Shown: piece after piece, positions 6,427 to 56,658 of the stretch
Layout: each line of letters begins with the position of its first letter
Numbering within the stretch: the first letter of the stretch is position 1
From: Octopus vulgaris
Taxonomy: Eukaryota
DNA length: 64,000 bases
Direction: 5' to 3'
Assembly (NCBI GenBank): GCA_951406725.2
Contig: OX597816.1
Coordinates: 94,488,001 to 94,552,000 of the forward strand
Translations under genes and position numbers: made by a program
The notes under the pieces: generated by a model
Told to the model about the DNA's origin: nothing
The model's database searches: none
The model's input: only the letters and a program-made list of their open reading frames with translations

Positions 6427-8690
6427 ACAAACCGAAATATGTATTCCGCACTGACAGGAGAGAAGTCATGATGAGAGGGTAGATTGCTGAGAATAAAATA
6501 TCTAGGGTAGATTATTGATGAAAATGGACGCAGACCAGACCCGTCTAGGGCGAATGCAATAAAAAATATGCCTTCCCCGATAAACATTAAAACGTTACAA
6601 GCATTTTTAGGTCTCGCAAATTACTACCAGGTATACATACTGAATATGCACGATTTAAGAGCACTCCTGAATAATTTGTTAATAAAAGATGTTAAGTTGA
6701 ACTGGTCGGACAAATACCAAAAAGCTTTTGAAGAAATTAAAGACGTTTTAATGTCGGAATTGTTATCACATTTTGACCCAAATTTAGAAATAATAGTGGT
6801 AGCAGATGTTAGTGAAAGTGGTATTGGACCTGTGATTTTACCCAAATATGAAGGTGGTAGCCTGAAAGCAGTAGCTCATACTTTGCGTTCATTATTGCCG
6901 GTTGAGAAAAGTTACAGTCAAATAGAAAAAGGGGCATTAGCCATCATATTTGCAGGAAAAATTTTCATAAATTTAGACATGGAAGATGGTTCCGTCTGCA
7001 GACAAACCACCTCCCATTATTGTCGATCTATGCATCAAAAAAGTGTATCCCTACACATACAGCCAAAAGATTGCAGCGCTGGGGAACGATCCTACTAAAT
7101 TACGACTTCAAAATGAAGTATTTGCCATGGCAAAAAATTGGGACATGCAGATGGTTTGTCAAGGTTAATGCCAAAATACAGCGAACCACTAGAAGACACA
7201 GTGATAGCGGCGTTAAAAGCCGAAAATGAAATTTAAAATATATTGTGCAATGTTGTACGTGAATTTCCTGTGACATTGGAGGAAATAAAAAGTAAGACAG
7301 AGACGGACGAGTTTATCATAAAATGAAAAAAATAGTGAGGTCAGAAAAAACAGCAAAAATACGTGTGGCTGGACGTAACACAATTTCGAATTTGAGGAAT
7401 ATGAGGAGTTATGTTTACTGGCCAAAAATAGGTCTAAATATTGAGAGGTTGGTAAAATCCTGCAGAGGTTGCGCTCTGACAGCGAAAGCACCACTTATAA
7501 AATTTCAACCTTGGACCATGGAATATTCGCCCAAGACCGATATTCCATGGTCCGGACTACACATAGACTTTGCAGGACCGTTAAACCGGTCATGCTATCT
7601 AATAGTGGTAGATAGCTTTACAAAATGGCCAGAAATTTAAATGTACAAACCGACATCCACGGTAACAGTGGAATTTCTACACGAACTTTTTGCTAAGTAT
7701 GGCGTCTCGGATACCATAGTCTTCAATAACGGTACGCAATTTTTGCAAGATGTACTCAATTGAACATATCACTACTCCATCGTATCACCCAAGATCAAAC
7801 GGGCAAGCGGAAAGGTTCGTGGATACATTTAAAAGAGCATTAAGGAAATCAAGAAACGAGCTAGTCGATGACGCAGTATTGACACAATTTTTTAGGGTTT
7901 ATAGGATAACACAAAACCCAAACGCTTTTTCGTGCAAGTCGCCAACAGAACTAATGTTTGCTCGAAAAATAAAGTCAGTTTTTGACAAGCTGTTACCAGT
8001 AAGAAAAACAAATAAGAAAACACTAAATATACGACAAAGCACTTTAATATCGGTGACAAGGTGGTTTTCAAAATACATAAAAATGGAAAACAAGGTTGGG
8101 AAGACGAAGTAGTAATAAAAAGAATAGCCAAAATGACATATATGATAAGAAGTGAAAAATGGGAACACAAAAGACATTTAAACTAGCTAAAAAATAGATA
8201 TACGGAAAAGGGAAAAGAGATACCCATGGAAGTGTTCTATGACACCTTTGATGTTCCAGCGCGAAAGAAATCGAACCTAGGCGTAGCAGCACAAGAAAGA
8301 GGAAACAAACAGAACGGTTGGAAGTAGTGCCTAAACGGAAGAAATATCAAACTTTCCTATGAGGAAAATCTCAAAAAGAGGGATGTGATTGAAGGAAAAT
8401 AAATAAATAAATAAAAAATAATAATATTAACTTCCAACAGAAGTCAATCTTAGTGGGGGAGATGTTGTGGCGAGAGCCATTGACATCCTTGGGGGATTGA
8501 AAGAATAGACTAGCCGAACTCTTATAAAGAGTAGCGTATTGGATGAGATAAGAGGTCGGTAGGAGTCATTGAGAAGGCGCTTTTGAGTCTCACGAAGTAC
8601 ATCGTATGAACACATTGATTTTACTTCTGCATCGTTAAATTATATATCTAACATTTGTCAAAGATATAAAACTATGCAATATTTACAGTC
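6425..8690 (+). mobile_element. Decayed Ty3/gypsy LTR retrotransposon (RT end, RNase H, integrase, probable 3' LTR ~8384-8687)
   Basis: LQAFLGLANYY; VVADVSESGIG..YSQIEKGALAI (RNase H); YWP..CRGC, PWSGLHIDFAGP..VVDSFTKWPE, YHPRSNGQAERFVDTFK (integrase); frameshifts and stops; purine tract AAAAAGAGGGA followed by TG at 8384. Confidence 0.88.
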
Positions 8691-9880: not shown

Positions 9881-11089
9881 TACAGAAAAGTGTCACCTCA
9901 GATTACTAAAACAATTATATAAACTGGATTGCAACAAACAACAGGGCTACACCTGGTTTTAAATGATCAAGCTGAAATAGTACACGAAAGATCCAATGAC
10001 TGCAGCTCAGAATCAGTGTCTCATAACAAAAAAAAAATGATCAGAAATTCATTTTTGAAGCGCAATATCTAGATGAAGAACTTAAAGGTTTGATGCGATT
10101 ATCGTCCTCTATAATATTGTCGCCCTAACACTGACCGTGTCAGAATATATCTCAAGACATCACAATGCTGCTACCTACACTCGTTGGAAAAGTTAAAACG
10201 ATATAACGGCTGCTGCAAAAAAAAATGCACAAGTATGTCCCAGACTGTGGAAATGGTATGATTTTTGGTAGTATAAAAATAAATAATGACAGTGAATTTA
10301 GAATGAAAGGATTGGACGTTATTATAAAAGACAAGAGCTACATCACTTGTACACTAAGTGATGTAGTTTGTCTAAATGACAAGAAGCTGCTAAAGGACTT
10401 TGAAAAAATCCTTCAGACATAAAAACATAAAGTGGAAATAGCGCGAATGGACACAAGAACAGGTGCAGTAAAATAGAGTACGTGTGCCTTTCACAGGATA
10501 AAAATAGTGTAATTGTGATACTGATATTAATAATGATTTCTTTGTTAACCACAAGAACAGCACAAATACATACTAATAACAGGAGTTGCTTTTATCCACT
10601 TCACACCAGTGTTTTAAATGCTATCCGTGTTATTGACATTTAGTTTTTTTATAAACAGGCAACATTAATAACCTTGCATTGTTGTGAAATTTTCAAGTTT
10701 GCCCAATTTTAAAATTAATTATAAACCTGAAGCAAATAACTTTTCAAATTAATGTTGACATTTTAGCTCATTTCAGAAGAGATTTCTAAATTACATTAGC
10801 GTTCTTGTCACGTTTAAATTTACTCGGGTATTTAAAAAAAAGTTTCTACTCATTCTCATATGTTATATTTCTCCTCTAACTTCTTCTGACAAGATATTCG
10901 GAAAGTTGAGACGATTGACATTTCTTATTTGCAATATCTCTTTCATATACTGGCATTAAAAAAAAAACTCTCTCTTTTGACGATCCCCTAACTACACTTT
11001 GAATGGGCTTGGAAGGTAGTTAACGGACATTATTACCAAGAATATGCCGCAATCTATTTTATTGTAAAAATTCTGTTCCATCCTCATAT

Positions 11090-12810
11090 TCTGCTGTACT
11101 GTAAAGAATCCGTCACACTCTGACTCGAAACAGTTCATAACACTTTAACAAATAAATTGTCTGACATTCTACTGTACTGAAACAGGTCTATCACATTTGT
11201 AGTGATCCTACAACGGCGCGCGCTCGCGCACCGTCCATTTGTATTTCGCGCGTGTTGGTGCCTTTACCAAGGCAGAGAAAGGAAGGGCCCTCTCGCGCAT
11301 GCGCGAACCACCGGAAGCACGACCCGCTTGCCTATCGTGGTAGTTAGCGAGGCAAGGGGGTCGTAGAACGTTTGACCACTAGCAGCAGTCATCGGGGACT
11401 TGGGACCCAGCGATTGAAGGCGACGTCACGCGATATATTTTCTCTCCGTTGGAACTAGCTTCTATCAGTCCTTACCAAATTGTTGCAGACCAACATCGTC
11501 TCCATTGTTCGACGCCATCTTGAATCCCTTTCTGTTTTGGGGCTGAAGATTGTAAATATTACAATCTATTAACTTTCAGCCTTGCGCGCCCAGAATCAAG
11601 GACATCAGATAACACCAGTATTGTTATTGTTTACCAAGAAAGAGAATAAAGTAGTTATATGTATATTTTACGTCTGCGTCTTGTTGTTTCTGACTAGTAG
11701 AATTCTGGATTATTAAAAGCAACGGCTAGTGAGTGATTGCTTTGTGCACCCCAAAAGTGCACAAGACAAGATAGGACTTTCACACACACTAAGTTCGTTT
11801 CACATTCAATACACTAACTCCATGTTTTATTGTACGGTATCTGTTGCACTGAAATGTGCAGCCCATCAAACACTGCTGTTAAAAGTGTCAGTTAAAATGC
11901 AACTGTTATAATATCTGTTGCTCATTACTGTAAAAACCGTCACATTCCATTCGACGCAGTTCGTCATTCTGCATTGTAAATAACCCGATCATGAAGTGTC
12001 TATATCGGCTGTTACACTTGGAATCCGTCACACTAAACTGTACAGTGCTTGTTACACTGTACAGTAAAGTGTTCGTTACACTCAACTACACGGTTGCGTC
12101 ACACAGTATAACCTGTCGCACTGGCCATGTCAATATATTTCATAGCATGAAAATGCTGCTACAGGATCCAAATACTGTTCAGTTACACTGTCTTATACAT
12201 GTATGTCACACTATAATACATTGCGTACTGTACTGCATAATTTGTCACATATTTAACACACTATATTGTGCAAGATCTTATATATCAACTGTACTCTTAT
12301 GTGTATAAACAGCAACTTTCTAAATCATATAATCCCTTCATTGAGCAAATTCCAAACAGTTTACACGATGCCTGTCAGACATTATCATAAAATAGCTGCT
12401 TTATTCTTTTGAACGGGGTTTGTCACAATGTATCTTACAATACAGGATCTCCTCTAATCTTCGATTACAGTCATAGTCCATTACTCAAAATATGTCACCT
12501 CTGTTGGATAGGGTTCGCTATAAACCACTGTACTAAGAATTGTCTACGAACTGATGTTGGTTCAACAAACTCTGTACAGTAGAATTTGATTGTCCATCGA
12601 AGTATGTGATAGATTCTGAGCAATGAAGTACGACGGACGCCGTACAGGAACGTGTGGCCAATATTGTACTGTAGACTATGAGACACGCTTCATCACTTCG
12701 TTCTGTCAGAATACTGTGCAGCCTCAATACACGTTACAGTACGGGACTATTCATCAAATCGTCTGTCACATACTACAGTAGGGAATATACTTTACAGTAC
12801 AGAATCTGAG
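11090..12810. repeat. Highly diverged ~24-bp minisatellite, interrupted by a GC-rich insert
   Basis: GT(C/T)ACAC recurs at 12027, 12051, 12075, 12098, with similar GTCACAC/CTGTA units across the region. Confidence 0.5.
11198..11727 (+). mobile_element. Candidate solo LTR
   Basis: Abrupt CpG-rich block starting TGTAGTG, TATA-like TATATA ~11433, AATAAA at 11645; no CA end or TSD confirmed. Confidence 0.4.
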
Positions 12811-13309
12811 ACCGATATAATTAGGACTAGGCTTACAGAGAATAAGTCCTGAGGTCGATTTGTTCGACTAAAGGCGGTGCTCCAGCATGGCCGCGGGCAA
12901 ATGACTGAAACAAATAAAAGAATAAAATAATAAAATATATTCAGCCTTCCTTAAATATATTATTAAATGTTCGCGAGTTTTGTTCTTGATTATAACACAT
13001 GCACCCAGCCTAATCCATATTACGCCTACATTAACGTACCACGCGACAATGAATACAAGAACCACAAGACAACTCTTTATCGCGTTGCCCTATTTCTTAT
13101 CTTCTACAAAAAGGTGTTTTTACTATATACCAACCCCTACTGATATAAGATATTGATTCTTTTGCTGAGACATAAGATTAAACATTTATTGAGAGGGATT
13201 ACAGTGATTATATATATTTACATGTTTCACTCACTGAACTTGCAGCCATGCTGGGGCCACCGTATTGAAGTGTTTAGTCGGAAAAATCGACCACAGAACT
13301 TATATATAA

Positions 13310-13529
13310 TGTGACCGCGTGTGTACCGTTGGCGATTTTTTTCCCTCTGTCTTCCCTTCTCTGGATCTTTCCTTATCCTGTTTCCGACGAAGAGCTCCGC
13401 TCGAAACGTTAAACCCTCCTTCTTTCCTTCTTTCCTGAGCGTCCAATAATACTATATTTGTTCCACGTCCTCGCGTTGTTGTGTGTTTTTTTGTGCTTTC
13501 TTGTTTGGATTAACTTTTGGATTAACTTT
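13310..13529 (+). mobile_element. (TA)n-inserted ~200-bp repeat (second copy 28584-28782), probable PLE pLTR remnant with hammerhead-like motif at 13380-13414
   Basis: Two near-identical copies flanked by TA tracts; gttt-CCGACGA-agagctccgctc-GAAACGTT-aaac. Confidence 0.6.
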
Positions 13530-13586
13530 ATATATATATATATATATATATAACCAAGAAAAAAGCAACAAGAATGGATCGGTAGA

Positions 13587-13678
13587 TTAGTACAATTGTT
13601 TCATACTTCATACTATAAACATTTTATTTCAAGCTGCAAATATTACAGCAAATATAATGTCAAGTATTCATCAGCTAA
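13587..13678 (-). ncRNA. Type I hammerhead ribozyme with long stem II
   Basis: Minus strand: ttag-CUGAUGA-auacuu...aaguau-GAAACAAUUGUA-cuaa; canonical core, palindromic ACAAUUGU stem III, GUA cleavage triplet. Confidence 0.75.
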
Positions 13679-14923
13679 ATCACATATAGGTTTTCCAAGT
13701 ATCTTGTAGAGTGTAAATATCCTTATGAAGTTATAGGAGTGAGTTCCATGAATCTGAAGTAAGATTCCAAGCATACTATATATGTTTTCCAACAATACAA
13801 AGTTTTAAAATTGATTATTAACATCCCAGAGAAGATAAATCTACTCATAAAAATGTGGGTATAAGTTCCAAGAGGCATGAGGAAAGATGTTGGTCATACC
13901 ACGGTTAAGTCCGCATCTAACTGTTGCAGACAAAATTCTATAGTAGCAAGAAATACAGTGAGGTAGGTTTAGCTAAAGCAAAAGACATCAGAAGAAAAAA
14001 AATGGGGATGTAAGAAGGAATAAAGATACCACAGACAAAGGTCAGTCTATATCTGTGGTGACAGAAAATCTAGGTCAGTGTAGAAGGAATCTTAAATTCA
14101 TAAAAGAACTGTAAGTTTGACCACCACTAGCTTTGAACTGAGAAACTCATAGAATTAATGGTGGGATTGAGAATACAGGAAGAACAAAGGAAAGCACTAA
14201 AGGGGTCATAGGTCATCGATAGAGGGAGATATAGTAAGAAATTTAAGGTTAACACTAGAATAGAAGGTATTTTATTTATTATTGCTTCTATTTTAACTTA
14301 TGTTTATATATGGTAAGAAGGAATTTAGGTCAACATCCAGAGGTCAAATCAATTCAATAGCAAATGATAGGGGAATCTTACTTATTCAAAAATCATAGTG
14401 AAAATCACATGTATCATTAAGGGAAAAATATTGAGATTCTAAAGCATAGAAAAAATAAAAAATCTACTAAATAACCGTATAGAGTTGTGTCAGTCTTGCA
14501 TTCACTCAAAAATCAAAACTCTGAAATATTTCAAATAGAAATTTGCAAGTTCTCCTACTGTTGTTCTTTCTAACTTGCATCTTTTAACATATATAAATAG
14601 TATTTATCGGCGTGTGACAATCATAGTTGTCGATGAGAAGTCGTTTCCCTTCACAAATACATATACTTTTTCCAGTATCGATTGACACTGATATTGAAAA
14701 AGTGAAATCAAACAATGATAAATCTCAGAGCGAGTTATAAACAGTAGCAGAAACACATCGTGACATATATTTGCCATTTGAATGTGGCTAACCCCTAAGG
14801 GTGGATGCTACTGTAGTTTGTAGCCCCAGGAGGACACCTCCTCCAGCTGGCTATAGACACACTTTCTGTGCCCTATCAGTATTTGCGAAGGGAAGCAATC
14901 CTTCCCGTCTTCAACTTATGATA

Positions 14924-14968
14924 CACACGGACTCGAGTTTCAGGGTATTGACCCGTCATCGGCGTGTG
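14924..14968 (-). ncRNA. Type I minimal hammerhead ribozyme, copy 1
   Basis: cacacg-CCGAUGA-cgggucaauacccu-GAAACUCGAGUC-cgugug. Confidence 0.7.
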
Positions 14969-15211
14969 ACAATCATAGTTGTCGATGAGAAGTCGTTTCC
15001 CTTCACAAATACATATACTTTTTCCAGTATCGATTGACACTGATATTGAAAAGTTAAATATATGTCACGATGTGTTGCTGCTACTGTTTATAACTCGCTC
15101 TGAGATTTATCATTGTTTGATTTCACTTTTTCAATATCAGTGTCAATCGATACTGGAAAAAGTATATGTATTTGTGAAGGGAAACGACTTCTCATCGACC
15201 ACTATGATTGT

Positions 15212-15256
15212 CACACGCCGATGACGGGTCAATACTCTGAAACTCGAGTCCGTGTG
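15212..15256 (+). ncRNA. Type I minimal hammerhead ribozyme, copy 2 (predicted cut after C15250)
   Basis: cacacg-CCGATGA-cgggtcaatactct-GAAACTCGAGTC-cgtgtg; 6-bp stem I, palindromic ACTCGAGT stem III, GUC. Confidence 0.7.
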
Positions 15257-15563
15257 TATCATAAGTTGAAGACGGGAAGGATGGCTTCCCTTCGCAAATA
15301 CTGATAGGGCACAGAAAGTGTGTCTATAGCCAGCTGGAGGAGGTGTCCTCCTGGGGCTACAAACTACAGTACCATCCACCCTTAGGGGTTAGCCACTTTC
15401 AAATGGCAAATATACGTCACGATGTGTTGCTGCTACTGTTTATAACTCGCTCTGAGATTTATCACTGTTTGATTTCACTTTTTCAATATCAGTGTCAATC
15501 GATACTGGAAAAAGTATATGTATTTGTGAAGGGAAACGACTTCTCATCGACAACTATGATTGT

Positions 15564-15608
15564 CACACGCCGATGACGGGTCAATACTCTGAAACTCGAG
15601 TCCGTGTG
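15564..15608 (+). ncRNA. Type I minimal hammerhead ribozyme, copy 3
   Basis: Identical to copy 2, 352 bp downstream. Confidence 0.7.
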
Positions 15609-15792
15609 TATCATAAGTTGAAGACGGGAAGGATGGCTTCCCTTCGCAAATACTGATAGGGCACAGAAAGTGTGTCTATAGCCAGCTGGAGGAGGTGTCC
15701 TCCTGGGGCTACAAACTACAGTACCATCCACCCTTAGGGGTTAGCCATATTCAAATGGCAAATATACGTCACGATATATATATATATGTATA

Positions 15793-18012
15793 TTAAGACT
15801 AGCAGAAGCATCAACCAGTTTCAATTCTGAAGATGAATCACTAGTCAAGAACAAAAGTGAACACATCCCCCACAGAGGAAGAAATAAAGATCTTGATGAA
15901 TTCTGTAACCACATTGAGAACTTTCCCTACCATACTATGCATAAACAGAAAGTTAACTCAAATTTTAACACTACACAATGGAAGGAACTGATAGAACTTC
16001 AAAATGATGAGGATATAACCATTAAAGAAGCAGACAAGGGAAATGCAGTTGTAATAATGGATACATCATACTATAGAAATCTTGTAATTTCCTTGCTTGA
16101 TGACGACCTACATTATGAAAAAATTACCAACTACATCCCACAAAAAATAATGAAAACTCTATCTTCACTAATTAAAACCCATGAAAAGGAACTAACAACC
16201 AAAGAGATTGACTTTCTAACAAACTTTAAATGCAAACCTAGCCTTTTCTATGGTCTGCCAAAAATCCATAAAAGCCAAATTATAAATGAAACAATTAAAA
16301 AATCACCAAAGACATACATACACACACCTAACCCGGGGGACCTAAAACTACGACCCATTGTAGCTGGCCCAACCTGTGAAACACACAGACTAAGTATATT
16401 TATGGACATCCTCCTGAAACCTTTCCTTAAACATATCGATAGCCATATCAGAGATGACTTAGATATGTTAAACCACCTCCCAAAAAAAGCCAAGGAAGAA
16501 ACAATCCTGGTTTCATTTGATGTAGTTAACTTGTATACCAGTATACCTCATAATTATGGACTAGAGGCAATACAGTTCTGGCTGGACCAATTTCCGGAAG
16601 AAATACCAAAAAGGATCAGTAAAGAATTCATTACTAAATCAATTGAATTCATCCTACATAATAACCACTTCATGTTTGACAATACATTTTACCGTCAAAA
16701 ATCCGGAATTGCTATGGGTACAAGGGCAGCACCAGTCATTGCGAACCTAACAATGGGCTACATGGAAATAATCATTTACCAGGAATCTTTATCAATCTTT
16801 GGAACCCCACTTTCTCAATACATAAAAGAGAATTGGAAACGATTCTTAGACGATTGTTTTATACTCTGGAATGAAAACACAGATAAACTCCTAAAATTTA
16901 AAAACCTATTGAACAGCATAAACCCAAATATACAGTTCACAATGGAATACAACCAAAAGGAGCTCCCGTTCTTGGATATACTAATTTAAAAAATTAACCT
17001 TAAAATAGAAACAGACATTTTTTACAAAGCCACAGACGCCAAACAATACCTTCTTTTTAATTCATGCCACCCAAGACACACTAAAACAAACATCCCCTTC
17101 AACCTTGCAAGAAGGATATGCACAATAGTGTCAGAACAAAATACCAGGAACTTTAGACTGCAAGAACTCAAAAACACCCTAATTGACAGACATTACCCAA
17201 CTCAACTCATAGAGGATGGGATCAGACGTGCAACAGAAATCAACATAGAAACTTTAAGAAAAGTTCAACACAACAACACACCTTCCCCGAAAATACTACC
17301 TTACATATCTACATACAACCCCAGAAACAAAGAAGCCTTCACCATCATCACCCAGAATTTACCAATACTTCATAAGGACCCCAAATTAAAGGAAATTCTT
17401 AACATACACCAAATCATTAAAAGCTACAAACAACCTAAATCACTTAAAAAGATTCTCACAAAGGCAAAATTGTTTTCTGAAATTACGGATGCAAAAGTAA
17501 AAAAATGTGGTAGATCGAACTGTGCAACATGTCCAAACTTGCTAGAAGGATCAGAATTCCTCTTTAAAGAGGGACAGAAATTCAAGATCAAATCTAACTT
17601 TACTTGTGCCTCTGAAAACATAATTTATGTCATTAAATGCTCGGGCTGCCACCAAGACTACGTGGGATCCACGGGACTATCACTCAGACGTAGATGCACA
17701 CTGCATCGACAACAGATTGCATTTCCAGAATACAGAATGATACCTTTTAGTGAGCACATTGAAAAATGCGCAAAGCAACTACTACCACAATTTTTAATCT
17801 TTCCATTTTACCAATGTGCTATCGGATCATCAACACAAATTAGACTAAACAAGGAAACATTCTTCATTGAAAAGTACAAGCCCAGACTTAACCATGCCAA
17901 CATACTGATACAGAGAAATTCACACCAAGGGAAAGGAAAAAACATTTTTTTAATTTTAAGCGATTATCTCCCTTACACCGGAAGAAATCACTCATTACCT
18001 CCCCTTATTTAG
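15793..18012 (+). mobile_element. Penelope-like element (Neptune-like) RT + GIY-YIG ORF; 5'-truncated, one in-frame stop at 16987-16989
   Basis: ADKGNAVV, FYGLPKIHK, LRPIV, SFDVVNLYTSIP, GIAMGT, RFLDD, LPFLD; same frame continues past the TAA (YKATD..YL..SCHP); CGRSNCATC linker; IIYVIKC..YVGST GIY-YIG; (TA)n tracts on both sides. Confidence 0.92.
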
Positions 18013-18267
18013 AACTCTTTTAAACATAAACATAAAGATAACTCTGTTCAAGATAAACATAACGTCGTAAGAAATTTGAAAAGCTAAACGCGAAACCGGT
18101 CTTTCTTCAAAACTATGTCATTGTAGGGAAAAAAAAAAAAATTTTTAATATTCTTCAGACATATTGACGCAAATATATATATTTTTTAACCTTTAAGCCT
18201 TCTGTAGTTTTTTCACTTTTTACTATTTTCTATATATTCAACCACGTGCTTTCACAAACCAACTTTC

Positions 18268-18319
<52 letters not shown>

Positions 18320-18588
18320 TATGGAATTTAAAAGTTATTGCCATTAATAGAGTCACCATTGGTGTCGCATCTATATTACATTTAACAGTAAAAGGGACTC
18401 GTCAAACTCAAATGGCTGAAGGCATAAAGCTTCTCTACAACTGGAAGAAGAAATACGTAACTGTCAGTTGGTTTTTAAACAAAAAATAATCGTCCGTACT
18501 GCGAGTGGAATGGAGTTATCTCCCTTGCACCGGCTCCGGCCATGGTGATATTCGAAGGAGTGGTGGCAGGAATATTCAACGAATGGAG

Positions 18589-19038
18589 CATATTTATCAT
18601 AAGGGCACACGAGGCACCTACCTGCTAGAACGTGGAGTTAAAACCTTCAACTTAACCACCAATGACACTGAAAAATTTTACAGACAACAGTAGACGGGCG
18701 ATAGAGTAAAAAAATTCAACATACCATCAAAGCTTAATGCTATATAGTTTGGTATTTGGATATACTTGTATCATGATTTCGAGTTTTGGCGAACTCGATA
18801 AGACTTGCTGACGAGAGTTAAAGAATTTTGCCAAAACTCGAAATCATGATATAAGTATATCCAAATACCAAAACTATAGCATTAAGCTGTGTTGGTATGG
18901 TGATTTTTTTTTACTCGTTTTTTTACTCGTTTACTGTTGTTGTCCGTGAAATTTTTCAGTGTCATTAGTGATTAAGTTGAAGGTTTTAACTGCACTTTCT
19001 AGCAGGTAGGTGCCTCGTGTGTCCTTATGATAAATATG
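18589..19038. repeat. ~200-bp-arm imperfect inverted repeat (18589-18790 / 18830-19038), probable inverted PLE pLTR
   Basis: CATATTTATCATAAGGGCACACGAGGCACCTACCTGCTAGAA mirrored by TTCTAGCAGGTAGGTGCCTCGTGTGTCCTTATGATAAATATG; hammerhead at the centre. Confidence 0.85.
18803..18856 (+). ncRNA. Type I hammerhead ribozyme
   Basis: acttg-CTGACGA-gagtt..aactc-GAAATCATGATA-taagt; canonical core, palindromic ATCATGAT stem III, AUA triplet. Confidence 0.75.
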
Positions 19039-20923
19039 AATTTTAATTCTATAGCTATCTAGCGCTATTTAATGCCCGCAGCCACTTATATTATTATTGT
19101 TATTATTATCAATTCTCTATATTTCCCGCAGATGGTAATAACATTCGATTTTGCATATTTACTCCTCACTATATATGTATAATAGTTGTATACTGTCAAT
19201 TTAACGTGACAGTAAGGGATTACACCACCGCTGTTTAGCCCTAGGAAGCATCGAACGCTTCCTGTCGGCTTCGATACATTTACTGTGTCCTTATATATAT
19301 TTACGAAGGAGAGACAAATACCCCCAACAGCTAGGCCTGCATCTAGAGACACACATGTTTCAGGGTCTTTGCCCATCATCATATATATGTATCATATGTG
19401 ATTAAAAATCCCACCTTGCAACTATGTGGTTTGGGGTTCAGTTCCACTGAACCATGAGCAAGTTTATTCTCTTATAACCCCGGCCAGACCAATGCATTAT
19501 GAGTTAATTTGTAGACGAAAACTAATTGTATACTCGACAAGCTTCCACACAGTTTCCGTCTACCAAGGTGCTGTGCAGTGGAACTGATCCCAAAACCACG
19601 GAGTTGCAAAGTAAGCTTCTTAACCACATAAAAAATATAGAGCTGTATTGAGTCGTCCTCGGCATCTTACTAGTTCTTATTTAATCGAAAAAAGGCTGGT
19701 GAAAGCAGAATGAAACGAAAGTGACTAAATGCAGTGTAGAAATTTTCTGCTCCCCTACCGATCTGGAATTAATCGCGTAGGAAGAGATTGATAATTATTA
19801 TTACTAATAATGTAGTACAAACGAATCGAAATACTCTCATTTGGCAGAACAATGACTATAATAATAATAATGGTTGCTAACATTGGCACATTATCCCAAT
19901 TATTGTAGGGGAAATGTTTCATTCAATTACATCGACTCTAATACATGAACAGTACATAAATTATTGACCTCAGAAATACCGGAGTTAAATTTGATGTTGA
20001 CGAGGAAGGGGCTTATGAGAACGTAATTAAATAACAATAGACTAGTTAGTACTCGGTGTGGAACCTTCCAAGAAAAGAGTGAATAAAGGACCTCTGGGGA
20101 GGGTCTTTCGGAGACTGCTAAGACACCGGGTCACCATTTCTTCAGGAACAAGATAATCAGCTTATCCTGCTTTTTCTCCGCCTAACATAGAGTACGTTGC
20201 TTGGAAACAAAAGTATTTGATAAACGATCATAAGTTACTCTGTACGCTTGTAGTAGACATCAACAAAATCATGACCTCCAAGACACATAAACTGTCGTTT
20301 CTTGTAGGTTTTACTGCTTGATATATGCCTCGTTCGGTGATCCCTTTTCTTGACAGTGTTTGCTTCGAGAAAATCTGGATCTTGAGATAACAGCTATCAT
20401 CATAGATTCAAATGGTCGGCCGGTGGTCCCGAAAGAGAACAATAATAAAAATGGTGTCTTCCGACTCTTGGCCTGATCTGACTCGGCTTGAGTCGAAAGA
20501 TCAGGCTTCCCGACCTAAAACGAAATGTCTAGTATGATCCATTGAATAGACTTAGTGAAAGACTAGAATAGTACCTTAGATTCATATTAAAATTGGTTGA
20601 AAGTAAAGAAAAGAAGAAAACTTTGAAGTAGGTTAACAGATGTGTGCAAATCTGGAAAGGTGGAAGTAGTCCCATGATGTCAATATGCACATGTTGGAAT
20701 TATGCGTCAGGTGTAGCAAAAGTATCAAATGGTGACTTGACATGGTGTATTTTAGCTTTTTGACATGCGATACAACTACTGGGCCATTTCCAGATGTCCT
20801 CGTTGATACCAGCCCGTACAAAACAGGACGACATAAGCTACTGTGTGGATCGGATACCAAGATGCGATAAACAGTGCAAAGCGGGAAAAAAATACCTGAC
20901 ATCAATGCTTTTGTGGTACATGC

Positions 20924-21147
20924 GGCGAGCTGGCAGAAACGTTAGCACGCCGGGTGAAATGCGTAGCCGTATTTCGTCTGCCGTTGGGTTCTGAGTTCAA
21001 ATTCCGCCAAGGCCGACTTGGCCTTTCATCCTTTCGGGGTCGATAAATTAAGTACCAGTTACGCACTGGGGTTGATGTAATCGACTTAGTCCGTTTGTCC
21101 TTGTTTGTCCTCTCTGTGTTTAGCCCCTTGTGGGTAGTAAAGAAATA
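20924..21147 (+). mobile_element. tRNA-derived SINE, complete, with TSD
   Basis: A box TGGCAGAAACGTTAG, B box GAGTTCAAATTCC, core GCCTTTCATCCTTTCGGGGTCGATAAATTAAGTACCAG (resembles Meta/MESC SINE domain); TSD GGTACATGC at 20915 and 21148. Confidence 0.88.
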
Positions 21148-21396
21148 GGTACATGCGGGCGTTCATAACAGATACAATCGTTACTCTAAAGAGAAGGAAT
21201 CGAAAACTCTCAAGCATGAATTGAAAATGCTTGAGAGTTAAATATGCTGCCAATAATTCCTGTCCGAAAGTGTTGTATTTAGATTGCAGTCGCTAACTGC
21301 TATACAACACATCTGACTGCAGACCAGTAGGATGCGTGTCGAATCATGTCGGACTCATTAGATATAACATGTAAGATGTAACAAAATGGAGATATA

Positions 21397-21621
21397 TATT
21401 TCTTTACTACACACAAGGGGCTAAACACAGAGGGGACAAACAAGGACAGACAAAGGATTAAGTCGATTACATCGATCCCAGTGCGCAACTGGTACTTCGA
21501 CCCCGAAAGGATGAAAGGCAAAGTCGACCTCGGCGGAATTTGAACTCAGAACGTAACGGCAGACGAAATACAGCTACGCATTTCGCCCAGCGTGCTAACG
21601 TTTCTGCCAGCTCGCCGCCTT
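21397..21621 (-). mobile_element. tRNA-derived SINE, same family, with 21-bp TSD
   Basis: Reverse complement of the 20924 family; ATGTAACAAAATGGAGATATA at 21376-21396 and 21623-21643. Confidence 0.88.
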
Positions 21622-22188
21622 AATGTAACAAAATGGAGATATAACGAGTTTCTGGATGTATTAAAATGAATTGACGAAAGCTAGTCTATACTTATGACAG
21701 ATTTTATTCAAATGCTACGTAATTACACAACAGAGACCAGTTCGAGGCAAACCCAGATATTTGTATTGTGATTCGTCGTCTATTTTCTTAGAAAATCTCT
21801 TGTCCAGTTCTTATAGGTGTCTACCACTTAGTGGAAAGAGGATGGTAATGGGTTCGCTCGAAAGAAGTTTGTCAGTGTGTGTATGTGTGTATGTGTGTGT
21901 GTGTGCATGCGTGCGTACGTGTGTGACCGTGTGTGTGTATGTGTATTGCGTATGTGCAGGTGCGTGCATGTGTGAAAACTAAGTCTCGGCGAAGTTGTTA
22001 AAGATGACAGAAGTAAATTGTATGAAAATTACTGAAGGAGCTGTTTGAAAATCACTGAAGGAACTGTCTGTTTTTTTACAGGTGTTGCGAATATATACCT
22101 GTGTTACTGGAAAAAGAATTGGATGGACCTGTCTAGATTCCCCACGGTTTAACATAAGATGATGGCTAATTTGATAAGTTAAACAAAT

Positions 22189-24940: not shown

Positions 24941-27540
24941 ATGTTTCTTTATTAGCCACACAGAGCTGAACACAGGGGGGACAAATTACAAAGTAGAGCT
25001 TTTCTTTTGGGGGAGAAAAAAAAAGGCGGTGAGGGTAGGTTTTCGATCAAAACGGATCGTTAAAAAAAGCATCAATAGGGATCGTGTATCACAGAAATGT
25101 CATGATGTAAAGTGTAAAGGGGGAAACAGATAAGGTTTATCCGTGGAAAGAAAAGCCTACGAAAATACCACGGTAACCTCGGTCAATAATGTCACATGTT
25201 AACACATTTATTTGCAAGAAAGTAACACTCTGCTTTAAATTTTTCCGGTTTCATAGGATTATGCTCAGGTGGCTTCGTCATTCATACGTACCATCCTTGC
25301 TACATTCATTCATCTTTTTTTTTTTTGAAACATTCGCTCGACAAAACTTGATTCTCTACTCTTACTTTCCTTTTCAAGTGATACTTGAAGAAGTTGATAA
25401 GAGATTGACCAAATAGGAAAGTGTTTGTCTCTAATCCTTTCAGATGCGTCCACCAAATACATTTTTTCGTCATAGCCACAAGTGTGATGAAAATAGCTCT
25501 TCCTTCCCGTTTGAAGGAAGGAGGCGTGACGATATTGACGATAGACTCGGCTGATAAACCGACTCGTTCCACACGTGACAGCAGTCGTTCGACATAAGCC
25601 CACAGGTCGGAAATGGTTGGACACTTTGACTACATCTCGGGCAGGTCGGCCCTGTGTTTCTCGAGTCGTGTCGTAGAGCTTATCCCGAACGGGTAGCGCT
25701 TCTCGGTAGCACTGCCAGGCCAAGGATCTCTGGAAGTTGTCCTTAGGTCCCGGCCCGAGAGTCGTCTTGAACAGGTGGGTCAGGTATTCCTCGTCGATGC
25801 CCAGGTTCGCCCCGAGATCGTCGTCGTACCTCCCATCCACTAATCCCTTATAGAATGCTTTGGTTGTGTTGAAGTCGCTCATGGTCGACCCGGGACGGTA
25901 TAGCTGCTTGAGAGTAACGCGACACTCGCGGTGCCATTCGCCCTCCCTCGGCCTCTTTTTGATCCACGACTGCAGTTCGGTCATGGAGACGAGCTGCGGG
26001 AAAGCGTACCTCACAAACGGTGACCACACCTGTTCACTGTCGTCTACGTAGAGCCGGAGATGTCGCAGTCTCAGCGCGTGTCTGCGCATCATCAATCACG
26101 GCATGCCCAGCCCTCCTTTTAACGGGTGTTAATAGCAAATGGATCGCCTGACCATCGGGACGCATTTTCCCACAAGAAGCGGAAGACAATGTGTTCTAGT
26201 TTGGTGATGGTAGGGTCAGGACAAGGTACGACGGTCAGGCAGTAGTAGATGACGGATGCGACGTACGTGTTCACCACCTCCGCCCGACCTTTTAGAAATA
26301 GTTTCCTCTCGGCCTATTGCCGGGCAAGAGTGACCACCCTACTCGTTATCTCGTTCCAGTTTTTCTCCATTTGAAGGTCTGGACCGAACCAGACCCCGAG
26401 TAACTCGACTGGACCGTCGGTCCAGCGTCCCACGACGGAGGCGCCGGTGGACGGCATGGGCTTGCTTCTCCAGGTGCAGAGCCGCAAGCCCACTGACTTT
26501 TCCCGGTTGATTTTCGCTCCTGTTACCGCTTCGTAGTCTTTCAGTGTCTCGCCGACCAGTTCGATGTCCTCGTGGCTAGACACTATGACGGTGATGTCGT
26601 CCGCGTATGCAAACACGCTAGTCCCGCATCCCAATTCTCGCGGGATGCCCCTCAGAGTCGCCAGCTTCCGCAGTAGTGACTCGAGAGTTAATACGTATAG
26701 AAGCGACGAGAGGGGGCATCCCTGACGGACCGAACGTGCAATGTCGAAAGGTCTCGATAGATGTCCATTTACGCGAATTACCGAACGGATACCTCTGTAC
26801 AAAGCAGCTATCCAGCCTCGGAAGACGGGGCCGAAACCAGCCGCTCTGAGGACAGCCTCCAAGTATCGATGGTCTACTCTATCGAAAGCTTTCGATTGAT
26901 CCAAATTGATCAGAGCCCCACCCATGCCAGGTTCCTTAACTACCCTGTCTATGATGTAGTGCATCAGATGGAGGTTGTCATGGATGCTCCGGACCGGCAC
27001 GGCTCACGTTTGTACCTTGTCGACCAGTTTCTCGATGACAAGCGCCAAGCTCTTGGCTAACACCTTGTCCAAAATTTTCAAGTCTGCTTTAAGCAGTGTG
27101 ATGGGCCTAAAGTTATCTATTACGTCCCACTTCTTTGGATCTTTCTTCAGCAGTGTTACGGCTCCTCGGCTCACAAAACCGGGGATGCTCCCGTTTTGCT
27201 GCCAGTTGCAGTACACCGCTGCCAAGACATCTCTAAACAAGTCTGGCATACAACTGTAAAGTTCGTAGGGTAGACCATCCAAGCCCGGCGATTTGTCCCT
27301 CGAGCATTCTGCCATCGCGTCTCGCACTTCCGCCGCTGTGATGGCACATTCGCAGCGCCCTGCTTCTCTTGTCGAGAGTCGTGGCAGGCTGTGTAGGTAG
27401 ACACTGAAGTCCACCCTGCGTTCTCGCCCGCCACTCGTCCCGAACAGCCGGGCAAAATGCTGTTGAAAGGCCTCACACATTTTACTTGGCTCGAGTAATT
27501 CGCGCCCCTGTTCATCTACCAGAGACCGAATGGTGGCTTT
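24941..27540 (-). mobile_element. Tx1-like (L1 group) LINE, 5'-truncated ORF2 with stops and frameshifts
   Basis: KSPGLDGLPYELY, NFRPITLL, LDQSKAFDRVDH, VRQGCPLS, YADD, C-terminal AWQCYREALPV; 3' end abuts (TATC)/(TATG) microsatellite. Confidence 0.88.
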
Positions 27541-28583
27541 AGAAACGCCGTGATACTAAACGCTTTATGGACGTGAAGCCGAAGATAATCCCATAGAAAG
27601 CAAAATGCTGATTCGAAGACTACAGATACAAGCTGTCACTGGAACGGAACAAATCTGTAAAACTTTCCAGAAGTTTATCATCTAAGTATATATATGCAGG
27701 TCTATATATGCAACTATATGCATGACAACACATACATTAAACAAAGCATACAAATCTGCTCATGTACTGATTCCAAATACTGCCTTCCAGCTTGTTTTCA
27801 TGTAAAAGGTAGTCTATAATTCTTTGGAATTATAGTACTATTGTAAGACTGAAACTAAAGCTCTCCAGCTGAAATACTTGGCCAGTAGTAATTATTGTCG
27901 GGACGCAACACAGCATAATAATTTGCACAGCGTCCCTTGATAGTATTAAATACTTGTAAGAATATATTTTCTTACTTCTGTCATCTAATTTGGGCAGCTA
28001 GTTATCATATAGATGAATTTATTAAGAAATCAACTAACTCCCATTTGCTGTTATCGTTTATTTGTAATTTGTGTTCGTCAGAGTTTGTCACTTGGCTCGA
28101 TGTACATCAAAACAAGTTGCAAAACTAAAGCTATCTGAGAATAAATAAAGCTGTTATGTTTCCAACACTCTTAGTGATAACAAAACCAGATACCAAATCA
28201 AAAAGATGATAATAATCTTTCTAAAACGCACGGTTAGCAACATTTGAAGTAAACAAATATAAATTACTTGAAAATGTACGAGCGTAAGAATTGAAAATTT
28301 CAAAATATGTTAGAAATTATGCAATCAATATTTATGTTGTGATACTTCTTATAAAATGTTTATTTGAAAGCATTTTCTGGTTACGTATTAGTTTCTGTAC
28401 GTTTGAATTTGAAATGTTCAGTACATATGATTTGAGGAGAGCACGTGTATATCAGCTGGGTTTTATTGAAGGTCGTATGCTGCTTGCATAATCTGTTGTG
28501 GAGTCTGCATATGAGAGAGAGGTGGGAGCGAGGAAGAGAGAGAGACAAACAGACTGACAAACAGACAATATATATATACAAAA

Positions 28584-30479: not shown

Positions 30480-33400
30480 GCTGAAGTTGTTGAGTCCGTT
30501 TGAGGAACGGTGGGAACTGAAAGTAAGTCCTCTTCGACGAATGCTTTTTTTAAGCGATCATCAGATACAATATTTCGTTTTCTTCCGATATCGAGAACGA
30601 AATACTTTGGTTCTTCTTGGATTATGTTGTAGGGCCTGGAATATGGTGGCCGAAGTTGAGAAGGTATTCCATCATTTCTAACGAAAACATGCGTCCAAAT
30701 ATTGATGTCCTTTGGGATATGTGAAACGACGTTCTGTTATCTGGGGCCTGCAGGGGACAAATGGGACATAGACGTCCGTAAGCGGTGAACATATTTTGCT
30801 GGGTCCGGAAAGTCTTGTGGTGAAACAAGGTCGATCATCTGACCAGGTAAGGCGAGTGCCGTGCCATAGACCAGTTCAGCCGGAGTATGTCCAACTTCCT
30901 TCTTAACCGTGGATCGAATACCAAGAAGGATGAGAGGGAGATATTCCAACCAGTTGGAGCAGTCTGAATATGCTTTTATAGCCCCCTCCCTCCTTCGAAA
31001 TTTACCAAGCCAAGAAATTCCTGCAATTTGCGGAGAGATGAGGGTGGTGGAAAGTCTACGATGGCTTTGACTTTCTCGGGAAGCGGGTGAATGTCATCCT
31101 TATCGACGATAAGCATGTGTCGAAAATTCTTGACAGCGAGATACACTGCCGGTAATTCTCGACCGAAGGTACAGTATTTAGTCTCGGCGGATTTTAAGCA
31201 CTTGGTGAAGAAGGATACAGGTTGCCAAATACCGTCAGTGAGTTAATGGAGCACACCTCCAACTCCGGAACCGGATGCATCAACTAGTAGATGGAAGCAC
31301 TCCGTCGGTTACGACGATGAGGGTTCCGGTTGATCCGAATCAACGGAACAGCCTGCTCGTGAAATTAACGTGTAAGTGGCTGAGCACTCCACAGACACGT
31401 GTACCCTTAACGTAGTTCTCGGGGATATTCAGCGTGACACAGAGAGTGACAAGGCCGGCCCTTTGAAATACAGGTACAACAGAAACAGGAAGTAAGAGTG
31501 AGAGAAAGTTGTGGTGAAAGAGTACAGCAGGGATCACCACCATCCCTGCCGGAGCCTCGTGGAGCTTTAGGTGTTTTCGCTCAATAAACACTCACAACGC
31601 CCGGTCTGGGAATCGAAACCGCGATCCTATGACCGCGAGTCCGCTGCCCTAACCACTGGGCCATTGCGCCTCCACGCATCAACTAGTACAAACAGTGGGG
31701 CGTCTGGTTTGGGATACACCAGCATGGTAGCATTGAGATAGTTAGATAACGCTTTTTTCAAAGCAGCGAATGAGACAAGTTGTTCTTCACTCAGGGCAAT
31801 GTTTTTACATGTTCGCTGTCGCAGCAAATCTATGAGCGATTATGCTGTCTCTGCACAGTGGGGTAAAAATCTCCGGTAGAAATTTACCAAGCCAAGAAAT
31901 TCCTGCAATTTGCAGAGAGATGAGGGTGGTGGAAAGTCTACGATGGCTTTGACTTTCTCGGGAAGCGGGTGAATGTCATCCTTATCGACGATATGCCCGA
32001 GAAAATGAAGGGACGCAACTCTGAACGAACATTTGCTGGGGTTGATACTACTGTATTCGCGCAGACATTGGAATAGCAGGCGCAGGTGTTGATCGTACTC
32101 TTTGTCTGAGCTACTAGCTACGATTACGTCGTCTATGTATGCATAGACGAAAGGTAATCCTCTGGTAACTGTGTCTATAAAACGTTGGAACGTCTGTGCC
32201 GCGTTACGTAAACCGAAAGGCATACACAGGACTTCAAACATTCCGATAGGCGTCGTGACTGCTGTCTTCGGAATATCCGCAGGTTCCACAGGATTTGATT
32301 CTAAGCTCGCACAAGTTCGATCTTTGAAAAGATGCAGAGAGCTACAAAAGTCCTGTAGAAGTGGGCAAGATATGCTTCAGGTACAGTGCAGTTATTTAGC
32401 GATCGATAATCACCGCAAACTCGCCAATGATGACTCCTTAGGAATGCAATGTATTGGCGAGGACCAGTTGCTGCTAGACGGGCGGATGATTCTACGGTCG
32501 AGCATGTGCTGGAATTCTTGCTTGACGGCCTTGAGACGATCTGGTGGTAACCTTCGAGGTCGTGCAGTAACAGGTGGACCGCGGATCTTGATGTGGTGGG
32601 TGACTTCATGTTTGCTAGGTTGTCTATGGATATTGGTCGAACGACGTGCAGGTATTCTTTAAGGGTAGTACTGTGACGGGTTGTCGTTGTTTGCAAAATG
32701 GTTGGACTGACTGTGACCATATGAACGGTTATACCGCGCACAGTAAACTGAGTGGTGCTGTCGACAAGTCTTATGTACTTAATAATCACCAGGAGACCGA
32801 AATGATAAAAGAAATCGGCTCCTAAGATAGGGATCGGCAGTTTAGCGATGACGAATACCCACTGGAAGGTGCGGCGTAGTCCTAAGTTCAGTGTAAGGGA
32901 CTGTTCACCGTAGGTTGGAATCGATGAGTGGTTGACTGCCTGAAGACAGACTGGTATCTCTTTTCTTTTGCCTGAAGTGCAAGAAACAGGGATTATGCTG
33001 ACTTCAACGCCGGTATCAACAAGGAAACGCGTGCTTGTTACAGGATCGCAAACGAAAAACAGGCGACTTTGTGGGTGAGAGCCAGAACTTCCGTCGCGTT
33101 CAATTCCTGGCTGTGTCGTTTCCCGAACGGGATGCTGAAAACGACCATTGGATCGTGCATTTCTACACCCGTGTTCCGAACCGTCTACCAAATCGACGCG
33201 TGGTGCCAAGCGATAGGGCTTGTATCTGCTCTGTCAGGACCAGTACTTGTGATGCCCGCTGCGCCACCAATGAAGCACTGATCGCAGAAAGGAAAGGATT
33301 TGCAGGCTGGCGTCACCGTTGATACCGTTGAATATCTATGTGGTACCTCGGTGATTTTGTCAGCTAGTTCTGCCAGTTCCTCAATGGAAGTGGATTCTCG

Positions 33401-35705: not shown

Positions 35706-36404
35706 ACTAAAAGTGCATGTGAAGCCGGAGCGTATATTACGGGTGTGCTAAGTGTACTCTGCACACCCATCAAAAATGGCAAATTCATTTTAACTATTAA
35801 CCTATTAACCTTAATCATAAATCTAAATAGAAAACTTTTGTTATACTCCCTTCTTGAAATTTGGTGGCAACACACCCAATATATAACAACCACAATAAAC
35901 CATATGTGAAGTGACGGAGGATTGAAACTGGGACACATAATCAACTCACTAACAATTAATTGCTATACTATATTTTATGCCTTAAATGTATAAATAACAT
36001 CCTATCTATCTGCTTGAGTCGTTTGTATCTACTTACAGCTGACACTAATCTGTAAAAGAGCTGATAAGTTTTATCAACTGTCAGATACTATACTTATTTT
36101 TAACATGGAGAGCATCACGTATGGAATAGTTTTTATTTTTATACTTAGATAATTTATAAATGATATTTTTACTTATTAAGATTAAAAAAATCAATATTTC
36201 TGTATTTCACATAAATGTTTATTTACAATTATCATGTAATCAGTAAAAATACTGGTAACAATTGCTTTATATAGGCATGTGGTGCATCATGCAGGATACT
36301 ATATATTCAGTTCCTTTTTTTTTTTTTTTGTCACATGGTCATAGTTTCTGTGTTCAGCGCAAGTTCTGTTTGTCGCAACTCGGATTCTTTCACAGTTGTT
36401 GACA

Positions 36405-37571
36405 ATGTATGTGAAAATAATAACCATTCTAATCTTTGAGACTGTTGTCTCAGGCTTCGTTTTAAAGCCGTTTGATGGCAAATGTGTTACGGATGCTTAT
36501 CCACCAAAATCTTCCACTACTGTCCCGAACTTGACTATCAACTTAGATCTACCTGCTCACGACCGATGGAAAGAAGTAGCTATAAAGTATAAAGATTCTA
36601 TGAAAAGTCTCATCGGAGATCTCAAGAAACTGGTGGGAAGCGTACCCGTTGTGGGAGACTTAATCATCAAAATTATTGATAATGAATTTGAGAAAATTAT
36701 CCCCACACTTCCCGCTCCTTACGCTGATGAACTGTTGGGTATGGCCGATTACTCTGGTATCAACCGCGGCGAGATACTCTTATATAACATCTTCTACGAA
36801 GTATTTACGGTGTGCACATCGATCATTGCTGAAGACAAGAATGGTGAGTTGTTTCATGCTCGAAATCTTGACTTCGGTTTATTTATGGGATGGGACCTTA
36901 AAAAAAATGACTGGGCCATTACAGAGGCCCTTCGGCCCATGATTATGAACTTGGATTTTCAGAAAAACAACAAAACTGTTTTTAAATCTGCAAGCTTTGC
37001 TGGTTACATCGGAGTCCTGAGCGGTGTAAAACCAGGTGTCATTTCACTCACTTTAAACGAAAGATTCCAACTTAAAGGTGGCTTTATTGGAATAATACAG
37101 TGGCTGTTGGGTCAAAGAACAGCTAAATGGTCAAGTTTTTTAACGAGGGACACCCTTACATCTGCAACTTCCTATCAAATGGCTAAAACTGAGCTGTCCA
37201 AGACGGAACTACTAGCACCCGTATATTTCATCTTAGGTGGAACAAAGTCTAAAGAAGGATGTGTTATCACAAGATCCCTAAATAAGACTGATAATATATG
37301 GGAAATGTCTGCAGCGGGTGGCTGGTACATACTGGAGACAAATTACGATCACTGGTTGCCTCCACTGTTTATCGATGATCGCCGAACCCCAGCTACGTTG
37401 TGTATGAATGAACTCACTCAAAATAACCTTACAATGGCTGGACTTTACAACGTACTCAGTACAAAACCAGTACTCAACAAACTTACAACATACACTGCAT
37501 TAATGCAGGCAAAAAGTGGATCTTTAGAAACACACATCCAAAAGTGTCCTGATCCTTGCTGGCCTTGGTAA
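36405..37571 (+). CDS. ASAH1: Acid ceramidase (N-acylsphingosine amidohydrolase), single-exon CDS, 388 aa
   Basis: Signal peptide MYVKIITILIFETVVSG; INLDLP..RW; NIFYEVFTV-CTSIIAED (Ntn nucleophile Cys); HARNLDFGLFMGW; LETNYDHW..DDRRTPA; VLSTKPVLNKLTTYT; CPDPCWPW end; no stops or frameshifts. Confidence 0.95.
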   Translation: MYVKIITILIFETVVSGFVLKPFDGKCVTDAYPPKSSTTVPNLTINLDLPAHDRWKEVAIKYKDSMKSLIGDLKKLVGSVPVVGDLIIKIIDNEFEKIIPTLPAPYADELLGMADYSGINRGEILLYNIFYEVFTVCTSIIAEDKNGELFHARNLDFGLFMGWDLKKNDWAITEALRPMIMNLDFQKNNKTVFKSASFAGYIGVLSGVKPGVISLTLNERFQLKGGFIGIIQWLLGQRTAKWSSFLTRDTLTSATSYQMAKTELSKTELLAPVYFILGGTKSKEGCVITRSLNKTDNIWEMSAAGGWYILETNYDHWLPPLFIDDRRTPATLCMNELTQNNLTMAGLYNVLSTKPVLNKLTTYTALMQAKSGSLETHIQKCPDPCWPW

Positions 37572-56567: not shown

Positions 56568-56658
56568 TGATTCATACATTGCTGAAAATTTTATTTTATT
56601 AATTGTATAACAAAATTGAGATTCACTTAGTAATAAAAATTATATTTTTCTTATTCAG

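Follow-up and report, generated by a model that had tools for sequence, protein, structure and literature searches.

We analyzed a stretch of 64,000 nucleotides of the Octopus vulgaris genome (assembly GCA_951406725.2, contig OX597816.1, positions 94,488,001 to 94,552,000 of the forward strand), hereafter the window, and focused on the hammerhead-bearing repeat array at 14606-15775. The array consists of two plus-strand 352-nt units and one minus-strand arm, arranged head to head, and is one insertion of a genome-wide family of 352-nt repeats free of open reading frames (ORFs). The family is very probably non-autonomous and mobilised in the manner of Penelope-like elements (PLEs). Unit copy 1 occupies 15072-15423 (plus strand, 352 nt, GC content 0.44) and unit copy 2 occupies 15424-15775 (plus strand); they keep a period of 352 and differ at 4 sites. 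Unit position 352, here the last base of copy 2, is where 3′ ends of the family fall most often and would correspond to the first start site of the reverse transcriptase (RT). The segment 15424-15473 (plus strand; unit 1 to about 39-50) corresponds to the “tail” whose end is the second family-wide 3′ end, the putative RT start site 2, although it is internal in the window copy. The inverted arm, 14606-15059 (minus strand), contains unit 49-352 plus 1-151, about 1.3 units, and the head-to-head junction at 15060-15071 is made of the last bases of a preceding plus unit. At 14606 the arm stops inside the hammerhead core and abuts the neighbouring repeat without microhomology; this end, at unit 151 and joined to an older repeat of which a part is inverted, may have been caused by a deletion or a template jump. 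On the other side, a (TA)n tract (15776-15793) separates the array from a PLE.

Each full unit carries the parts of a type I hammerhead, namely a 6-bp stem I, the core CCGAUGA, a 4-bp stem II, GAAA, a helix III formed by the palindrome CUCGAG, and the GUC triplet. Hammerhead 1 was predicted at 15212-15256 (plus strand), with stem I at 15212-15217/15251-15256, the core with its U4C substitution at 15218-15224, stem II at 15226-15229/15234-15237, and the palindromic helix III. Its predicted cut is after 15250. Hammerhead 2 (15564-15608, plus strand) has its predicted cut after 15602, and hammerhead 3 lies in the minus arm (14924-14968, minus strand; predicted cut between 14930 and 14929). An earlier first-pass annotation had claimed two plus-strand hammerheads 352 nt apart with these two cuts, about 1.3 diverging minus-strand units, a leftmost copy broken inside the ribozyme core, the CCGAUGA core, and a C/U mismatch below stem II; GUC triplets end at both cut positions, and the arm, its broken end, the core and the mismatch were all read in the sequence as described. 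It had further taken the change between GGGT/ACCC and GGGT/ACTC as one that keeps stem II paired. The change itself is seen, with GGGU/ACUC on the plus copies and GGGU/ACCC on the minus copy; alone it gives weak support, and the covariation across the family carries the argument instead. As for the additional hairpins that it listed, those at GGCACA, TAGCC and GCCA.. are present in the minimum-energy fold of the cut-to-cut monomer, while the CTTCCC segment is drawn into a long rod.

The cut-to-cut monomer folded at −119 kcal/mol (z −4.96), and 0 of 100 shuffled sequences folded equally well. The two helix III segments were able to pair mutually at −11.3 kcal/mol, and dimeric hammerheads have been described in which the helix III segments of two ribozymes are paired (PMC4209133). 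Four observations weigh against an active hammerhead in the window. The isolated ribozyme region was given a different, non-hammerhead fold by RNAfold (z about −1 to −1.5), and a scan of 10000-22000 against Rfam (E ≤ 1) returned no hammerhead family and hairpin-like matches below their gathering scores. In addition, the window hammerheads have the C/U mismatch at the base of stem II (10.1-11.1), and their core carries U4C, which is reported to lower hammerhead activity in vitro (PMC3088659). Given the Rfam result, the anatomy of the sequence and the covariation are the basis of the ribozyme call. The unit is protein-free, its longest ATG-initiated ORFs having 57-79 aa. A 57-aa frame (15403-15576) spans the unit junction and the tail in each copy; it begins at a hairpin, its ATG is missing from the older copies inspected, and it is probably incidental. 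No long terminal repeat (LTR) architecture was observed in the unit, a statement that covers no search for a primer-binding site or a polypurine tract.

Exact hammerhead cores of the family were counted in the genome, giving 369 with CCGAUGA and 277 with CUGAUGA, 646 altogether, against 0 for the reversed-pattern controls. The architecture of the copies was analyzed in 128 pattern-found loci, all from contigs C1-C5, which comprised 51 of 60 returned loci, 76 further listed places and one longer stretch that stood in for 9 overlapping views of a single array. Removing 5 duplicates and 3 loci of another hammerhead family left 120 distinct insertions, so that the family is sampled in part (these insertions from C1-C5 and identity-ranked matches, compared with 646 cores). 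The other family, at loci L134, L135 and L241, also has a CUCGAG helix III and is otherwise unlike the 352-nt unit.

Two divergent arms were found in 58 of the 120 insertions; in 46 of the 58, an arm terminating at unit 340-352 is combined with one terminating at 32-56. The complete set of arms has 181 ends, of which 165 are located at these two 3′ sites, whereas the 5′ ends are scattered throughout the unit. A simple repeat, usually (TA)n, borders 85 insertions. Such a layout of tail plus inversion, the tail being an optional 30-40 bp at one end, is described as particular to PLEs (PMC8557442, PMC3846280), and the length of the PLE tail in vitro equals the spacing of two internal sites at which the RT starts (PMC11167929). 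Thus, the copies show PLE-type insertion anatomy in their two 3′ ends, inverted arms and (TA)n targets, in agreement with the earlier inference that a PLE RT could copy the unit. Among the 35 insertions without a simple-repeat flank, 15 have flanking duplications of 8-13 nt, as counted without a chance control. A satellite or fold-back element arising at the DNA level, with a hammerhead likeness due to chance, would account for the palindromic layout and for the missing Rfam match; however, fixed 3′ ends combined with random 5′ ends are a mark of reverse transcription, and the stem II and C3-G8/U3-A8 pairs covary, so that we consider this explanation very improbable.

The covariation was observed within the family and among its relatives. 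Stem II pair 155-166 is G-C in 137 segments and A-U in 42, the A-U form being inherited by two subfamilies and hence reflecting few events; pair 156-165 is G-C in 154 segments and G-U in 34. The base of stem II is mismatched in nearly all family segments. A sister family with a 362-nt unit (969 exact cores) aligns to the 352-nt unit with a score of 138, compared with 63 ± 8 for 200 shuffles. In this family and in further relatives, a U3-A8 core replaces C3-G8, a substitution reported as a natural covariant of the hammerhead core (PMC4209133). Their changed stem I and stem II sequences still pair, and the palindromic helix III is retained in most; the sister-family ribozymes likewise lack an Rfam match. 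The sister copies likewise have two ends (362 and 61-64), arms in inverted orientation and flanking TA, and many dispersed multimeric arms occur among them. Across families, the covariation of stem II and core points to long selection on the predicted fold.

Comparison of arms within insertions showed that both arms of an insertion are from one subfamily. The arms disagreed at 45 of 708 diagnostic sites, compared with 37.7% for random pairs, and the divergence amounted to 4.3% for the two arms, 3.6% for tandem overlaps and 9.9% for different loci. A model in which a separate RNA templates each arm found no support, given that the arms agree at the diagnostic sites. On the opposite side, the partner at the same locus was strictly the nearest sequence in just 24 of 158 comparisons.

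The PLE adjacent to the array lies outside the element, at 15794-18268 (plus strand). It is 5′-truncated, with its stop codon at 16987-16989, and encodes an RT, a CxxxxCxxC linker and a weakly matching GIY-YIG domain; the linker indicates a Neptune or Nematis type (PMC8557442). It also has a minimal hammerhead-like motif of its own at 18069-18107 (plus strand), with a U3-A8 core and unrelated to the unit. If the 352-nt unit were the pseudo-LTR (pLTR) of this PLE, as adjacency and the same strand would suggest, it should accompany other members. However, it was absent from 29 of 29 other 3′ loci and from 29 of 29 other 5′ loci of the PLE family; at the latter, ORF sequence continues upstream of 15794, and the PLE ends in its own hammerhead-like motif. 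We regard this possibility as almost negligible. The window confirmed that no unit copy stands at the 3′ end of this PLE, and the earlier view of the unit as a non-autonomous passenger, and not as the pLTR of its neighbour, held at both sets of loci. Several 5′-truncated copies of the PLE family abut (TA)n; therefore, the adjacency most likely reflects a shared (TA)n target and is not evidence that this PLE family is the mobiliser.

The same point was addressed across 166 unit loci, where the question raised beforehand, whether the unit stands beside PLE ORFs or occurs ORF-free, was decided for the latter. None of the arms in these loci connects to a PLE ORF or leader; PLE matches occur in 8 of the 166, all beyond TA or other DNA, and the 264 flanks share no 3′ continuation except across TA. 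The units could still derive, as solo or truncated terminal repeats, from an autonomous PLE family lying outside the sample, since the retrozyme family has been seen only in part and homology to pLTRs is frequent among vertebrate retrozymes (Li, Clavereau, Pollet 2026, bioRxiv 10.64898/2026.07.22.740005). Yet every arm in the 166 loci stops at a random point or enters another unit, and among 77 5′ flanks the only recurrent one was a long interspersed nuclear element (LINE), with no continuation into a PLE ORF or 5′ leader. We judge this explanation improbable. No autonomous partner was found among the 166 unit loci or the adjoining PLE pieces, which weighs against mobilisation by a PLE.

The arms also constrain the template from which they were copied. 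On a cut linear monomer, cDNA begun at the two start sites could reach no more than about 170-215 nt. Among second arms picked regardless of core, 22 of 59 pass the predicted cut site, and no pile-up of 5′ ends was observed there; 7 of 37 short second arms stop at 168-189. Moreover, 21 of 178 arms exceed 412 nt, one arm is a 9-mer, and 5 of 178, the window array among them, contain two or more cut sites. Because arms cross the cut site and exceed one unit, the template was uncut, either a circle or a read-through multimer. Cut linear monomers were thus rejected as templates, the expected pile of 5′ ends being absent and the arms too long.

A circle is, in our estimate, rather more probable than a linear multimer. 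It is favored by the RNA circles that tested animal retrozymes form (PMC7229834), by the conservation of the fold, and by the frequency of dispersed multimeric arms in the sister family. The account towards which we lean, by a modest preference, is an ORF-free hammerhead family copied in trans by a PLE RT from uncut, probably circular RNA. Read-through of a locus with two ribozymes would yield a multimeric RNA, for which the nine-unit tandem array at locus L184 (4400-7550; G000:C2:14086400-14089550), which has no TA flank, is a possible source. Two hammerheads would then pair through the palindromic helix III and cut, and a host ligase would close the 352-nt circle. The PLE protein would nick AT-rich DNA and start cDNA at internal sites, unit 352 and about 41; one start site per target strand would produce two arms of random length. 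The adjacent PLE would be a separate insertion into the same TA tract.

Alternatively, the same PLE-mobilised, non-autonomous element could use as its template uncut linear RNA from read-through of dimers and arrays; no circle would be formed, and the young subfamilies would have a ribozyme that is weak or dispensable. This is a serious rival, because the younger subfamilies carry U4C and PLE insertion in vitro needs no cleavage; we hold it to be possible, at clearly less than even likelihood. The U4C substitution is a derived state that has become fixed in three of the four younger subfamilies (C in 63/67, 21/23 and 34/38), whereas the oldest subfamily (6.7% diverged) keeps U4 (31/32), as does one young subfamily (U in 18/19). 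The in vitro PLE reactions used uncleaved RNA (PMC11167929), and 8 of 9 retrozyme dimers did not cleave in the vertebrate study (bioRxiv 10.64898/2026.07.22.740005). The 9-mer and several dimers are possible sources, and the arms at L182 and L402 run from the unit into an upstream LINE, indicating templates longer than one unit. In the window itself, both plus units share two variants that are absent from the minus arm, so a local duplication or conversion, at a later time, may have produced this dimer. All of these points count against a circular template. On the other hand, linear copying would leave the long selection on the fold, the circles of tested animal retrozymes and the dispersed multimeric arms of the sister family to be accounted for, and tandem overlaps are no more diverged than arms, which weakly fits copying from one circle. 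Contigs from runs guessed to be RNA, with the library type unrecorded, cover the unit and the PLE and reveal no ends of molecules; they were counted as evidence in neither direction.

Returning to the recurrent 5′ flank, five pattern-found loci have the same foreign sequence joined at unit 134. It had been considered as a chimera or a PLE body and turned out to be a LINE inserted with target duplication. At L220, the LINE has unit 53-143 on one side and 135-352 on the other, and about 15 nt are duplicated. In 30 loci of the LINE 3′ end, the unit 134-144 target (≥9/11 matches) comes directly after 29 of 35 distinct ends; 19 run on into the unit, and others lead into another LINE copy. For the 5′ end (30 loci, some overlapping), 7 follow the unit, 16 follow another copy and 7 gave no call. 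The LINE is positioned 3-15 nt upstream of the hammerhead core, with the core intact downstream of it. The window copies lack the LINE, the homologous site at 15549-15561, reaching to 15567 (plus strand; unit about 126-144), being empty, and all five interrupted copies of the pattern sample have the older core.

Intact relatives of this LINE (L355 and L370) have an ORF1 with a zinc knuckle and an ORF2 with APE, RT and zf-RVT domains. The nearest solved protein to ORF2 was human L1 ORF2p (E 1.7e-66), and a homolog search with ORF2 returned no informative clade names. From domain order and behavior we take these LINEs to be of the Tx1 type, the tree containing no reference sequences.

A young LINE family is similarly associated with the 362-nt sister retrozyme. 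In 20 of 30 loci, the copies are young (96-100% identical, 16 places), and all 20 carry one target; the hammerhead comes next in 17 of them and a further LINE in 3. The remaining 10 loci are mostly more diverged, with ends elsewhere, one at a U1 snRNA gene. This young family shows a 17-bp duplication at one site and includes intact copies with an ORF2 of 1140 aa; the target stands on both sides of most of its full-length copies. Retrozyme sequence also borders two long 5′-truncated LINE copies and a 69-nt stub at either end, as expected of independent LINE insertion. At L402, by contrast, copying through the hammerhead into the LINE occurred by the PLE route. An 8-kb composite at L182 (1689-9609) holds several LINE derivatives in tandem inside a retrozyme, and its inverted arm includes LINE 3′ sequence. 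Further LINE lineages are tied to further retrozyme relatives (L361, L362, L366, L367 and L370, from 20 fetched), and related intact LINEs form tandem arrays at other short targets (L353, L354, L363, L364, L365 and L369). A FastTree tree of the LINEs (6 near-identical rows omitted, one partial outgroup, no reference families) placed retrozyme-associated LINEs on both sides of the root, with other targets nested inside; this suggests that the association is old, on a weakly rooted tree. At L398 (1733-1896), the end of a sister LINE subfamily coincides with the start of a U1 snRNA gene, and several of its relatives end at the same short motif.

These observations can tentatively be combined into a three-tier system, which we propose with more doubt than confidence. 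PLE enzymes would spread circular-RNA retrozymes, and a long-standing lineage of L1/Tx1-type LINEs would insert just upstream of the retrozyme hammerhead. The host ribozyme would then trim the 3′ end of the LINE transcript, leaving target-matching sequence, and the PLE machinery would carry the LINE as cargo. The targeting was observed directly, as was one case each of an independent and of a hitch-hiked copy; use of the ribozyme by the LINE is the conjectural part.

The array stands in a crowded neighbourhood, with four TA-ended elements at 13300-18300. To its left is an older 1.2-kb (TA)-ended repeat (13530-14605, minus strand), of which 14432-14605 is inverted relative to other copies; it gave 357 first-look candidates, the best at 92-94%. 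A relative of this repeat, at L264, comes after PLE RT and endonuclease fragments. A minimal hammerhead-like motif with a C4 core occurs at 13378-13415, in a common short repeat ending at the TA tract at 13530, and a second copy of it lies at about 28653. Elsewhere in the window, a fold-back element resembling a miniature inverted-repeat transposable element occupies 18589-19038, with nested inverted repeats of 101, 37 and 46 nt. An uninterrupted 408-aa frame at 36345-37571 encodes an enzyme of the NAAA/acid-amidase type (CBAH and NAAA-beta matches) and may be an intronless gene or a retrocopy. The 182-aa open frame at 56637-57185, without a Pfam match, is probably the terminal exon of a host gene. 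The stretches at 25310-27555 (minus strand), 42014-43393 (minus strand), 6511-7098 (plus strand) and 31840-33233 (minus strand) presumably comprise L1-group LINE fragments ending in a microsatellite, another LINE RT and pol pieces of LTR retrotransposons.

The mobiliser of animal retrozymes has so far been argued from co-occurrence and terminal-repeat homology. Hundreds of young octopus copies bear the PLE footprint of two start sites, and the starts map to unit 352 and about 41; the unit could thus serve directly as template in the PLE assay already established in vitro, where a circle and an uncut linear RNA could be compared. The natural U4 and C4 subfamilies of similar age offer a gauge of the ribozyme activity needed for spread. 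The LINE site beside the hammerhead would be a new target of a sequence-specific endonuclease and, if the proposed use is true, a possible instance in which one mobile element exploits the ribozyme of another.

The literature search gave no account of a Tx1-type LINE paired with a hammerhead retrozyme (Repbase being outside its scope) and none of such a retrozyme family in cephalopods, although supplements of PMC7229834 and of the 2026 preprint may list relatives. Retrozymes, and Tx1 LINEs aimed at other transposons or snRNA genes, are already known, so what would be new within that literature is their pairing. LINEs were taken as target-specific where one target makes up more than 20% of their flanks. 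Target-specific LINEs of the Tx1 clade include Tx1L in Tx1D, Keno in U2 and Tx1-Mar in Mariner-N4 (PMC4494074). Like those, the octopus LINEs are APE-RT elements at one site of a multicopy sequence, with tandem copies and target duplication between them, and the sister group at U1 snRNA resembles the snRNA-targeting members; the difference is that their target is a hammerhead retrozyme.

The octopus insertions resemble PLEs (PMC8557442, PMC3846280, PMC11167929) in 3′ ends 30-60 nt apart, an inverted 5′-truncated copy, and AT-rich or microsatellite targets, but the element is ORF-free and the repeat is the whole element. With the vertebrate retrozymes (bioRxiv 10.64898/2026.07.22.740005) the family shares a non-autonomous nature, co-occurrence with PLEs, and a mix of monomers, dimers and multimers. 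There, the PLE link was drawn through pLTR homology and co-distribution, while here it is drawn through insertion anatomy, no homologous autonomous pLTR having been found. Non-LTR retrozymes are recognised by a type I hammerhead within a tandem unit of 150-450 bp and, when visible, by target duplications longer than 4 bp. The metazoan ones (Cervera and de la Pena 2020, PMC7229834) include mussel elements of 350-390 nt and the axolotl Rtz_353 with HHR_Amex2. Cleavage and circles have been demonstrated for those retrozymes, whereas the octopus family is known from sequence alone; its mostly dispersed, head-to-head insertions of one to two units and its U4C core are also different. Similarly to them, it has an ORF-free unit of about 350 nt with GC below 50%, a self-paired monomer, forms from monomers to multimers, and a type I hammerhead with a short palindromic helix III, and its mismatch at the base of stem II is as in HHR_Amex2. 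At this level, it can be classed as a putative metazoan non-LTR retrozyme. PLEs were proposed in PMC7229834 as a strong candidate mobiliser, and in the octopus family the tail and inversion footprint of PLEs has now been counted genome-wide.
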